A DNA stretch of 64,000 nt, from NCBI GenBank assembly GCA_014728035.1, contig WJMJ01000059.1, positions 160,001-224,000 of the forward strand, in the 5' to 3' direction. The stretch comes from Promethearchaeota archaeon (GTDB taxonomy: Archaea > Asgardarchaeota > Thorarchaeia > Thorarchaeales > Thorarchaeaceae). The position numbers and the translations under genes were made by a program. This document shows positions 49,773 to 53,153 of the stretch, in pieces; within the stretch, counting starts at the first letter, position 1; every line of letters starts with the position of its first letter. Under the pieces are notes generated by a model. The model did no database searches, had not been told where the DNA came from, and saw only the letters and a list, made by a program, of their open reading frames with translations.

Positions 49773-49802
49773 ATTAAATATCATTATTGTTGAGATGAAA
49801 GT

Positions 49803-50056
49803 ATGACATTGGATAGGATTCGTAATGATGACTCTACGGATGAACACATCAAAACGATTGAAGAAATGGGGTGTGTCGTTTCCTTAGAGAACCTTGGCGT
49901 ATTTGAAAAGATGATTCGAAACCATCTCCCCACTACTACTATCAATATTTCCCAGTGGACATTCTATGCTATCAGATCTCTCCTTTTGATTTGCAGAGAG
50001 CATAATCTTCGCATCCAAATGATATATGATGGCACTCATATCACCGTTGATTGTTA
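49803..50056 (+). pseudogene. 5' part of a hypothetical host gene interrupted by the IS607-type element (3' part at 52634-52715)
   Basis: Joining at the shared TA gives in-frame ...HITVDC-YQPATPVALPRGPMLDMFVQAILDGSF*. Confidence 0.6.
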
Positions 50057-50057
50057 C

Positions 50058-50075
50058 TTGGACAAACTTGGACAT
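50058..50075 (+). repeat. Right-end subterminal repeat (two TTGGACA units 10 bp apart)
   Basis: 17/18 match to the reverse complement of 52606-52623. Confidence 0.8.
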
Positions 50076-52216
50076 CAAGCAGTCCGTCCAGCAACGGTAC
50101 TGGACTGATACACATCAATAATATTTCTTGCGGCATTGACATCCGCGTGTAACTCTGACCCACAGTGAGGACAATAGAAGTATTCCCCGCCGGGACGTTT
50201 GGTTCGAGCTCCCTGTTTCTCCACCCGCATCCCACGCTCTCCACAGGCATGACAATCCTGAGAGGTGTAGGCAGGATTTACAGTCCAGACCCCACCGTAC
50301 TTGTGACCGAGGGCTTGCCGCATGTAGGTAGTGGTGTCAAGGACCTTGGCCCAGAGATTGGTACTCAACTTCCAAGACAGCGTACCTGCACCCCATCCCT
50401 TGGGAGGCTTGTAGGACTTGAGGTTCTCAAAGTACAGGGTCTTGACCCCGTGCTCCTCACAGAACCACGTTGTACGATAGGCCACCAATCGAGCAATCTC
50501 GCGGTCTATCATCCGAACCTTCCGCCAGTGAGCATCCAACAGGCTTTCCTTCTTTTTCAGATGGCCGGGATGTTCCATATCAGGATGTTTTTGTTCCCAG
50601 TTGTTCCGCATCTTCCGGACCAGCGAGCTCAGCTTTCGAGTCTGGTCTCTGAGAAGTTCCCGTTTGTCTATCAGGTGGTCGAATCCCACCAGCTCGTCAA
50701 CATAACCACTTCCATTCTTTGTTGAAAGGACTATGGCGACACGGATTCCTCGGTCAGCACCAGCTCTCCTGCTGTAGGTGCGGTCACCGAGAATCGAGTC
50801 GATGAGCTCGGGATGGGGGGGTTGGAAAGGGATCTGCAAAGTCAACCTCTTCCTTCGTTTGACCAGTCTGGGAGGACCACATCGACGGGAATCGCGCAAT
50901 CGCTGTATCTTCTCTTGCAATTCAGCTATTGTTTCCTCGTCACGGTCACTCCGGTTCTTGAGTCTTGCTAGTTGGTAGGTTGCATGTTGTAGGTCGATGG
51001 TGTTTCTGAGTTGATGGTGCTGGTCTGCGTACTTTGCAGCTCGAAACCTGAGTTGCATGGCTCGGAGATGTTTTCCCTGTTTTTCAGCCCTCTCTGCTTT
51101 CTCCAAATCACGCTTGACAGCTCGGGGGAACCAGTCAAAGAAGCGAAGGGTCAGGTTTTTGGTCCTATAGGGATTATCTGGATGGGGCTTTCCCTCTACC
51201 GGAGCTGGGAGTTTGATGGAGAAGAATATCTCGTTCTCACGCTCTGTGTCCCACGAGTACCAATATCCCTGGCCTGGCATATTCTCTGTGGAACCAGAAA
51301 AGTCCGTTGCAAAGCTCTTCATCAGTGGAGTCTCGAAGGGATAGCCGTTGGTCAACCAGCCTTCGACCAGACTCTTGGCTCTCAGCATAACCCGACCATT
51401 CTCTTTGAGATACTTCTTTACTCTGTATCTCTGGGAACCTCGTGTCCGTAATGGTTCTCCTCGGTCAGTGAGGATGGTCTCGTCAAGAGTTCTACGAAGC
51501 TGTCGCAGAACAGAAAGGGCATAGTAGTAAACAGACCCCTTCTTCTCCACCGCTTCACACGCTTCCCGAATCTCTTTTATCAATCCAGGGGGCACTCGTT
51601 TTCTAGCTAGTAGCAGCTCTAACTTGTTTGAGTCTTCATGGACAATTTCCAAGGCTGTGGTGAGCAGTTGCCGTCTCATCCAATCTGAGAGGAGGATTCG
51701 TGCTGCTTGTTCTAAGGCATTGCGATACAATCGTTCGAAGGTATCTGCCTTTATCTCAGGATTATGCTGGTAAGAAAGGGTTGGTTCCTTTCGTAACAAG
51801 ACATATCCCTGCCCTCTATATCCTGCCAAGTCTGAACAAATCCGGTTAAACTCATACGAGTCTGCATAGACTCGATTCAGGACTTCATTCACCATCTCAA
51901 TAAATTTCTCAAAATACTTAGACACAATAGAGAGGTCAAGTTTGTTGATCTTCTGCCCAGTAGTTTCATGCAATCGTTGTTGGAACTGTTTTACTGCATC
52001 TCTCCTAAAGGAGGGGTCAGGCCTATACCCTTTCCCCTTCTTCTGGATGACTCGTTCAACAGAATTCAGTCGGAATTCAGATACAAGATATTTCAGTCCC
52101 GTATATTTCGCAGTGGTCGATGACTCCAATATAAGTTTGTCATCCATTGTCTGTTGCCTTGAAGAGTCCTTCTTTGGCTCCCGGAGATGACACCGGGCTT
52201 GTTTTTCAATCATCAA
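50075..52216 (-). CDS. tnpB: Large TnpB-family RNA-guided nuclease (713 aa)
   Basis: RuvC-I GADRGI, RuvC-II YFENL, VNPAYTSQDCHAC...CPHC Zn finger, RuvC-III HADVNAARNI. Confidence 0.9.
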   Translation of the reverse strand: MMIEKQARCHLREPKKDSSRQQTMDDKLILESSTTAKYTGLKYLVSEFRLNSVERVIQKKGKGYRPDPSFRRDAVKQFQQRLHETTGQKINKLDLSIVSKYFEKFIEMVNEVLNRVYADSYEFNRICSDLAGYRGQGYVLLRKEPTLSYQHNPEIKADTFERLYRNALEQAARILLSDWMRRQLLTTALEIVHEDSNKLELLLARKRVPPGLIKEIREACEAVEKKGSVYYYALSVLRQLRRTLDETILTDRGEPLRTRGSQRYRVKKYLKENGRVMLRAKSLVEGWLTNGYPFETPLMKSFATDFSGSTENMPGQGYWYSWDTERENEIFFSIKLPAPVEGKPHPDNPYRTKNLTLRFFDWFPRAVKRDLEKAERAEKQGKHLRAMQLRFRAAKYADQHHQLRNTIDLQHATYQLARLKNRSDRDEETIAELQEKIQRLRDSRRCGPPRLVKRRKRLTLQIPFQPPHPELIDSILGDRTYSRRAGADRGIRVAIVLSTKNGSGYVDELVGFDHLIDKRELLRDQTRKLSSLVRKMRNNWEQKHPDMEHPGHLKKKESLLDAHWRKVRMIDREIARLVAYRTTWFCEEHGVKTLYFENLKSYKPPKGWGAGTLSWKLSTNLWAKVLDTTTYMRQALGHKYGGVWTVNPAYTSQDCHACGERGMRVEKQGARTKRPGGEYFYCPHCGSELHADVNAARNIIDVYQSSTVAGRTA

Positions 52217-52577
52217 CCTTGCACCTCTCTATCATTATATCCAATCCATATATTCTCCTAGAAGTGCAATAGAACCCAGACCAACTTCCTTGATTCTTTG
52301 GAAACTTTCGACTGTGCTGGCAGAGTTCCTCCACCTTCCGAGCCAGGTCTCCCGCCGCCTTCTGTCGGTGACTAGACACTCTTGCGTAGACTGCGGGATG
52401 AGCTGGAAGTAACTTCTCTTGGGCGGTTCCATGTTTGATCCGAGCTATCTCTCTGAGGGGGATACGACGATGATTACCAAGAGTTCGATAACATTCTATC
52501 AAGCCCTGTTTATCCCACCTTCTGATGGTCTTGGTGCACACTCCCAATCGAGCTGCTGCAATCGATACCGAAAACAT
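52206..52577 (-). pseudogene. tnpA: IS607 TnpA serine recombinase, internally deleted or frameshifted
   Basis: MerR-like HTH (AA..LGVC.KTIRRWD..G...RT.GNHRR), YARVSS..QK..GDL; DVGSG-like IKEVGLG out of frame; central RL.R region missing. Confidence 0.85.
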
Positions 52578-52605
52578 GGGGACGTATTGACCTATTACTT
52601 AATCA

Positions 52606-52623
52606 ATGTCCAACTTTGTCCAA
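52606..52623 (-). repeat. Left-end subterminal repeat ATGTCCAACTTTGTCCAA
   Basis: Inverted counterpart of 50058-50075, about 30 bp upstream of the tnpA start. Confidence 0.8.
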
Positions 52624-52706
52624 AGTTCTGGTATCAGCCCGCAACCCCTGTTGCTCTTCCAAGAGGGCCTATGCTTGATATGTTTGTTCAGGCTATACTT
52701 GATGGT

Positions 52707-53153
52707 TCATTCTAAGCCTGTGCTTCCAAACCCACCTTCTCCACGCTCAGATTTTCCAAGATCTTCCACTTGCTCGAAAATCACATCTGGTACTCTTCTG
52801 ATAGCAAGTTGTGCTATCCGCATTCCTTCCTCTATCATGAAGCTTTCCGTTCCATGATTTATCATGATGGATTTTATTTCTCCTCTATATCCACTATCTA
52901 TTGTTCCTGGACTATTGAGCACAGTTACACCATGTTTGATTGCAAGTCCACTTCTTGGTCTAACAACCCCTTCGTACCCAAATGGAATCTCTAGTGCAAT
53001 ACCCGTTGCTATTGCGTATCGTTCACCTGGTTTCAATTCATATTTCTCTGTTGAGAAAAGGTCGAATGCAACATCTCCTTTTCTGGCAGCCTTTGGTATT
53101 TTCCCTTGTGGCGATAGAAGCTTGACTCTAATCCTAATCTTTCCATCCAGCAC
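52707..53153 (-). CDS. dut: dUTPase (trimeric)
   Basis: AFDL, RPRSGLA, GTIDSGYRGE, RIAQL, RG.GGFGSTG. Confidence 0.96.
   Translation of the reverse strand: MLDGKIRIRVKLLSPQGKIPKAARKGDVAFDLFSTEKYELKPGERYAIATGIALEIPFGYEGVVRPRSGLAIKHGVTVLNSPGTIDSGYRGEIKSIMINHGTESFMIEEGMRIAQLAIRRVPDVIFEQVEDLGKSERGEGGFGSTGLE

Follow-up and report, generated by a model that had tools for sequence, protein, structure and literature searches.

A non-autonomous IS607-type insertion carrying an enlarged, seemingly intact TnpB of a Thorarchaeota clade

Cas12 and Fanzor both descend from TnpB, which also underlies the miniature genome editors. What, then, is a TnpB of more than seven hundred residues that stands beside a broken transposase gene in an archaeal genome? 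The question is raised by contig WJMJ01000059.1 of a Promethearchaeota archaeon (Thorarchaeaceae; assembly GCA_014728035.1), of which positions 160,001 to 224,000 were analysed; this stretch of 64,000 nucleotides is called the window, and all coordinates below refer to it. An original prediction, made from the letters alone, had seen here a giant TnpB in an IS607-type element and had suggested a possibly undescribed clade. Our answer, to which we assign a probability of roughly 0.72, is that the window carries a non-autonomous IS607-type insertion with a broken tnpA and a whole enlarged TnpB of a Thorarchaeota clade, and that this TnpB is an RNA-guided nuclease. It is most likely a double-stranded-DNA endonuclease of the TnpB/Cas12f type, whose guided cleavage we infer from the protein and RNA features described here. 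Typical TnpBs comprise 300-450 residues (PMC10691335).

The gene is an uninterrupted frame of 713 codons, counted from a TTG, at 50075-52216 on the minus strand. Relatives keep both this TTG and the ATG that follows it (TTGATG), with GAGAGGTG just upstream, and because of this conservation the ATG at 52213 is the likely start. Residue numbers are counted from the TTG at 52216.

50075..52213, minus strand: tnpB, 712 residues from the ATG (713 from the TTG at 52216)
50753-50755, minus strand: RuvC-I aspartate D488 in the motif AGADRG
50426-50428, minus strand: RuvC-II glutamate E597 in the motif FENLK
50162-50254, minus strand: zinc ribbon, CxxC..CxxC, with C655/C658/C682/C685
50141-50143, minus strand: RuvC-III aspartate D692 in the motif HADVNAARN

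In an alignment of 32 family sequences the three catalytic residues and the four cysteines are invariant. The TNB zinc ribbon (PF07282) is the sole Pfam match in the protein and scores 57.6 bits against a cut-off of 26.3. About 482 residues stand N-terminal to RuvC-I. An AlphaFold2 model, built with the family alignment, reached a predicted local distance difference test (pLDDT) score of 78 and a predicted template modelling (pTM) score of 0.72, and has the WED-REC-WED-RuvC-TNB fold with the following parts.

Residues 1-41: disordered basic N-terminal tail
Residues 44-49: single WED strand
Residues 72-290 (51347..52003, minus strand): enlarged helical REC lobe, delimited by the helices of the model
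Residues 305-360: WED strands, one of them at 354-360
Residues 363-442 (80 residues; 50891..51130, minus strand): three-helix hairpin inserted in WED, helices at 363-379, 383-420 and 427-442
Residues 450-464: two further WED strands
From residue 483: RuvC, with two long helices at 513-588
Residues 643-690: zinc ribbon, followed by the RuvC-III helix
Residues 704-713: disordered C-terminal tail

The hairpin thus sits between the WED strands 354-360 and 450-464, in what we take to be the topological position of the PAM-interacting domain of the larger Cas12s. Structure comparisons of the model with known proteins gave these pairs of values:

AsCas12f: 17.6, 382
Fanzor2: 14.3, 366
ISFba1 TnpB: 13.8, 374
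ISDra2 TnpB: 13.7, 350 of 362

Because the known TnpB, Cas12f and Fanzor2 structures align to the model, the whole core of a small TnpB is present according to this prediction, and the remaining roughly 300 residues are additions, namely the doubling of the REC lobe and the WED helical hairpin. These parts are under purifying selection within the family. The ratio of nonsynonymous to synonymous substitutions (dN/dS) is 0.11-0.23 overall, 0.06-0.18 in REC and, wherever it could be estimated, 0.13-0.44 in the helical insert; these values are from family pairs other than the window copy, whose nearest relative is 59% identical with saturated synonymous sites. The original prediction therefore described the protein well. 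The giant open frame with its intact-looking RuvC D-E-D residues and zinc finger, the approximately 480 residues ahead of RuvC and the long helical insert before the last WED-like strand have all been recovered, the last by the domain mapping. Its argument that a canonical RuvC-II glutamate sets the protein apart from a Fanzor agrees with the invariant E597 and the Thorarchaeota host.

How the gene came to this place can be read from a genome of the same genus (G001), in which the site is empty and the host gene is uninterrupted, with the same neighbours: an upstream small open reading frame (ORF), a dUTPase and a PadR-like gene. Deleting 50044-52644 from the window restores a host gene of a length identical to that in G001. 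This segment was inserted into a small host gene and has split it. Its G+C content is 0.495 compared to 0.40 over the rest of the window.

50044..52644, minus strand: the whole IS607-type insertion, 2601 base pairs, non-autonomous
49803..50043, plus strand: 5' part of the host gene, a small conserved protein of unassigned function
52645..52715, plus strand: 3' part of the host gene, from the comparison with G001
52607..52644: left end, with the tandem motif TTGGACAAAGTTGGACA (element strand, 52607-52623) and the terminal segment GGTTGCGGGCTGATAC... up to the junction
52206..52577, minus strand: tnpA remnant (serine recombinase), upstream of tnpB
50058..50074: tandem motif of the right end, reading TGTCCAAGTTTGTCCAA on the element strand and repeating the left-end motif in inverted form

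The split gene encodes a protein of about 103 residues that adjoins the dUTPase and the PadR-like regulator and was found in 12 of the 24 genomes of the same family that were searched. Both junctions carry GG (CC on the plus strand), which leaves the element ends ambiguous by two base pairs, and compared to the empty site there is no target duplication. A shared GG without duplication is expected for a serine recombinase. The right end was placed at 50044 because the similarity among 28 family loci breaks off abruptly there, after ...ACAAT(C/G)AACGG (...ACAATCAACGG in the window). A crossover at TA had been considered as well and was set aside, given a right end at ...CAACGG by family conservation and GG at both junctions. 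The left- and right-end tandem motifs form an inverted repeat at 16 of 17 bases. The left-end layout recurs in a copy on contig C16 of the same genome and in one relative, locus L031, and the right-end motif is kept in most family loci, including most of those in which tnpB is linked to a Cas1-like gene.

The tnpA remnant retains the MerR-type helix-turn-helix and the YARVSS motif with the catalytic serine, and is without the C-terminal part of the catalytic domain. On the model NF033518 it reaches 57 bits against a cut-off of 110 and covers positions 3-81 of 187, whereas an intact TnpA of 204 residues on C16 scores 167 bits. The two genes are about 89% identical over the first approximately 330 nucleotides; beyond these, the remnant shows a frameshifting gap of two nucleotides and about 75 codons are missing. 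The C16 locus (L040:2419-4890) is a rearranged second copy. Its intact tnpA is followed on the opposite strand by an ORF of 539 residues whose sequence corresponds, at 29% identity, to residues 1043-1524 of the giant Cas1-like partner described below, and then by a TnpB fragment (residues 258-325, 66% identity) cut off by the end of the contig. This may reflect a chimera made in assembly, or both element types may truly be combined here.

If the protein is guided by RNA, the guide should be found at the right end. The scaffold of a TnpB omegaRNA is closed by a pseudoknot right before the guide, and the terminus of the window element could fold in this way:

50044..50104, minus strand: predicted 3' terminal RNA module, made of the last tnpB codons and 31 nucleotides after the stop
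50100-50104 with 50087-50091, minus strand: hairpin of five base pairs
50092-50097 (loop, CCGTTG) with 50044-50049 (the last six bases of the element, CAACGG), minus strand: pseudoknot of six base pairs
50082-50085 (GGAC) with 50060-50063 (GTCC), minus strand: third stem of four base pairs, made by the second copy of the right-end motif
50024..50043, minus strand: predicted template of the omegaRNA guide in the host DNA beside the right end, TGATATGAGTGCCATCATAT on the element strand

Across 28 loci 96-98% of the alignment cells are paired, with compensatory changes in 8 of the 15 pairs. None of 500 shuffles reached the covariation score, and partners slid by one to three columns pair in at most 54% of the cells. 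The loop and the terminus change together from locus to locus, as in CCGTTG/CAACGG, CCGTTC/GAACGG, CCGCTA/TAGCGG, and CCATTT/AAATGG. The module stops precisely with the right end of the element, which is what the 3' end of an omegaRNA would be expected to do. Because the pseudoknot closes at the element terminus, as in the known layout of TnpB omegaRNAs, the flank would serve as the guide template, and the predicted guide of the window copy would be TGATATGAGTGCC... Further upstream, RNAalifold applied to the last 200 nucleotides of tnpB found nothing conserved but one small hairpin without compensatory changes.

It could also be imagined that these pairings are not part of a guide RNA but DNA-level features, read at the element end by TnpA or by the Cas1-like partner. 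The right-end motif is an inverted copy of the left-end motif, as would fit recombinase binding sites, and a similar hairpin is present near both ends of the gene. However, serine recombinases act on duplex DNA and have no need for intrastrand pairing, G-U-type pairs, which are a signature of RNA pairing, are tolerated in both the 3' module and the 5' module described below, and the 3' module is also kept in Cas1-linked loci in which a left-end partner motif was not detected. For instance, the surroundings of the Cas1-linked locus L049 contain neither a tandem motif of the left-end type (TTGGACA) nor a terminal inverted repeat. We regard a pure DNA-level role as very improbable, and continue with the module as the putative end of a guide RNA.

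The window TnpB belongs to a large but narrowly distributed clade. A search of 5.8 billion proteins yielded at least 214 clusters at 90% identity with lengths of 690-730 residues, of which the best is 59% identical to the window protein. The named TnpB homologues are all from Thorarchaeota, and for the neighbouring dUTPase the same is true of every named homologue but one. In a HMMER scan of 1.84 billion cluster representatives about 21 clusters matched at E <= 1e-30, all of them this family or its fragments. The remoter matches, including all beyond the Thorarchaeota, are confined to the RuvC half (roughly residues 445-705), and the scan revealed no sequence relative of the N-terminal approximately 440 residues outside the clade. 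Because distant matches reach only the RuvC half, these N-terminal residues are clade-specific at the sequence level.

In 15 of the 18 relatives with enough upstream DNA, tnpB stands head to head, about 190 base pairs apart, with a gene of 1800-1874 codons. A fold search recognised a Cas1 catalytic domain and, after it, a Cas4-like nuclease in the N-terminal part of its product. Pfam, NCBIfam, a profile search against PDB sequences and the ESM Atlas features did not reveal a Cas1 in it, and Foldseek alone gave a weak Cas1 signal (E 0.22). In one of these giant partners, P0123 (L049:2182-7806), a Walker A (SPTSSGKT) and a Walker B motif (IIIIDGWDE) can be seen by eye beyond the Cas1- and Cas4-like domains, and weak resemblances to AAA_22, Mrr_cat and TPR (scores <= 0.82) are listed by the ESM Atlas. 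The window copy has no such gene beside it, and because most relatives pair with the giant Cas1-like gene its IS607 context is the exception within the clade. A maximum-likelihood tree built from 23 full-length members of the family places the window copy inside a clade of 10 loci (SH-aLRT, the approximate likelihood-ratio support, 99), seven of them linked to the Cas1 partner. The only other relative with a tnpA remnant, L031, belongs to a different supported clade. Because the window copy nests among Cas1-linked relatives, the mobility enzyme differs within the clade, as judged from tree and gene content, being either the IS607 serine recombinase or the Cas1-like protein.

The aCas1 proteins are those reported by Makarova and colleagues in 2020. 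We know of no bench test of this TnpB clade. The pairing of TnpB with aCas1 in Asgard archaea has been listed in two groups, Cas1H-Asgard-1 and -2 (Altae-Tran et al. 2023, PNAS, PMC10691335), and our clade matches this association by partner and host, which is not an identity at the level of accessions. Since 15 of the 18 relatives show this pairing, the clade has already been catalogued computationally, through its Cas1 association. This divides the fate of the earlier claims. The Asgard host holds, with only Thorarchaeota among the named TnpB homologues, and so do the IS607-type element and the decay of its adjacent TnpA. The IS607 context is true of the window element and does not define the clade. 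The suspected expanded clade exists, with its at least 214 clusters, and is distinct, but it is not undescribed.

The same paper describes for aCas1 loci a hypervariable stretch downstream of tnpB that is closed by a conserved GTTCACTCA motif; within 400 nucleotides downstream of tnpB in 28 loci, a site of this kind was not found at a consistent place. Four loci from different genomes (L010, L011, L012 and L034) have about 20 nucleotides after the right end in common (GTGGCTYAGCAG...), beyond which lies the 3' end of a tRNA gene encoded on the opposite strand, and this could be a shared tRNA-adjacent insertion site or an inherited one. In addition, contig C123 of the same genome as the window (L060:1517-8353) encodes a TnpB of 556 residues with a TNB domain, head to head with a partner homologue of 1641 residues. 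The 556-residue protein shares only the zinc-ribbon region with the window TnpB and thus represents a second TnpB lineage with the same partner. This pair fits the two groups of PMC10691335.

A second structured module lies within the beginning of the gene.

52124..52197, minus strand: second hairpin-pseudoknot module, within tnpB codons 7-31
52193-52197 with 52180-52184, minus strand: hairpin
52185-52191 (loop) with 52139-52145 (GGATGAC), minus strand: pseudoknot
52124-52138, minus strand: guide-like segment, AAACTTATATTGGAG

The GGATGAC stands 3' of an ACAAT that echoes the right-end terminus. In 20 loci 92.7% of the cells are paired, 8 of the 13 pairs show compensatory changes, and again the score was reached by none of 500 shuffles. 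The protein tails encoded by both modules are disordered in the AlphaFold2 model. Of the four pairs with an estimate for the N-terminal tail, three have a dN/dS close to 1 and one has 0.3, with depressed dS. Because dN/dS is near 1 while dS is low, the constraint on this tail would seem to act on the nucleic acid, as RNA, and not on the protein. In 19 of 22 loci (L003-L036; e.g. L007:2950-3100) the 9-15 nucleotides after the module have an exact, locus-specific copy 121-149 nucleotides upstream, which lies within a TATA-like promoter region, where it immediately follows a CTTGNT-like motif. The segment resembles a short built-in guide directed at the promoter of the element itself.

These promoter matches invite the explanation that the protein is mainly an RNA-guided DNA binder which regulates, perhaps as a repressor of its own promoter, comparable to the TnpB-derived TldR repressors, and not a homing nuclease. 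Short guide matches favour binding over cutting in TnpB and Cas12, and the match of 9-15 nucleotides beside a CTTGNT-like motif would suit such a role. However, the catalytic triad is invariant across the family, unlike in known repressor derivatives, the 3' module with its flank-derived guide is conserved too, and the promoter target is missing from the window copy, so that a mainly regulatory protein seems improbable to us; both roles can coexist in a nuclease. The window copy keeps the 5' module, perfectly paired like the 3' module, but its guide-like segment has no second copy in its own genome. Upstream of tnpB only the last approximately 45 nucleotides of the intergenic region of the relatives remain.

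Several observations speak against a working RNA-guided nuclease. On the guided_TnpB model (NF040570) the protein scores 69.5 bits against a cut-off of 100, which is a curated score threshold and not a biological feature, and only residues 445-699 are covered. On the IS607_TnpB model (NF038280) it reaches 23.7 bits against a cut-off of 350. Rfam gave no match in 49800-52800, so that the omegaRNA is a prediction only. For the right-end guide, no consistent target-adjacent motif (TAM) emerged, and the left flanks of the three IS607-type copies end GG-rich and not in a CTTGNT-like motif. The window copy also has the longest terminal branch of the tree (0.64), being the most divergent tip of its own clade, and departs at 11 of 167 near-invariant positions, including G127C, R569M and S580Y, the third most among the 32 sequences. 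Finally, it is the only full-length family copy in its genome. Together with the broken tnpA and the lost promoter copy of the internal guide, the long branch, the departures and the single copy could point to a dying relic, whose frame is open only because its decay is recent and whose protein no longer works. Yet 712 codons have stayed open with all catalytic residues and zinc ligands retained, most of the departures at near-invariant sites are conservative, and the RNA modules have kept their perfect pairing. A relic is thus unlikely, while a partial loss of function of the window copy is possible.

With an RNA-guided nuclease as the preferred reading, the element could work as follows. It landed in the small host gene of the Thorarchaeota archaeon, and a transcript running through the end of tnpB would fold into the hairpin, the short stem and the pseudoknot that closes at the last base of the element. 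The next approximately 16-20 nucleotides, copied from the flanking host DNA, would become the guide, and the RuvC D-E-D site would cut matching DNA, for example a copy of the site without the element. The extra roughly 300 residues of the doubled REC lobe and the WED hairpin probably add contacts to the duplex of guide and target or to the DNA near the TAM. Mobility would only be possible with a TnpA provided in trans, for example by the intact copy on C16. A more far-reaching proposal, which we consider tentative and rather doubtful, is that the clade represents an enlarged TnpB with two built-in guide modules, a 3' flank-derived guide for homing and a 5' promoter-matching guide for RNA-guided self-regulation, that is moved either by an IS607 serine recombinase or by a giant Cas1/Cas4 fusion. 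It would then be a living intermediate between OMEGA (obligate mobile element-guided activity) transposons and Cas1-linked systems resembling CRISPR (clustered regularly interspaced short palindromic repeats).

An Asgard clade that has reached Cas12-like size without a CRISPR array illustrates one route by which such nucleases may gain domains. The combination of one nuclease clade with two unrelated mobility enzymes, a serine recombinase and a Cas1-like protein, is relevant to the way in which RNA-guided nucleases acquired their link with Cas1. The compact 3' RNA module, supported by covariation, could be used for guide design, and a datable insertion with a known empty site offers a natural pair of guide and target. 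Particular to the window is the IS607-type version with its broken transposase and clean empty site, by which the ends, the predicted guide template and the terminal RNA module are defined.

Among the known systems, AsCas12f (type V-F; PDB 8dzj/8j12) and ISDra2 TnpB (PDB 8h1j/8exa) share the fold with the window TnpB at only 10-16% sequence identity. The REC lobe of the window protein is about twice as large as theirs, and it differs from both by the 80-residue helical hairpin in WED. A CRISPR array, the hallmark of Cas12, is absent from 40000-62000 of the window. Fanzors have eukaryotic or eukaryotic-virus hosts and a rearranged RuvC-II glutamate, whereas the host here is archaeal and the glutamate (E597) is canonical; the window TnpB is no nearer to mimivirus Fanzor2 (PDB 9b0l) than to Cas12f or TnpB. 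With the IS607 family the element shares the order of tnpA followed by tnpB, a TnpA with an N-terminal MerR-type helix-turn-helix and the YARVSS serine, the absence of a target-site duplication, and a tnpB whose 3' end overlaps a structured RNA-like module ending at the element terminus. It differs in that its TnpB is about 300 residues larger than typical and its tnpA is broken, and most members of the clade have no TnpA. Concerning the aCas1-associated TnpBs, the portion of PMC10691335 consulted is silent on protein size, on the inserts and the pseudoknot, and on the 5' module within the gene. In place of their Cas1-like partner, the window copy has the remnant of an IS607 TnpA and inverted ends of the IS607 type.

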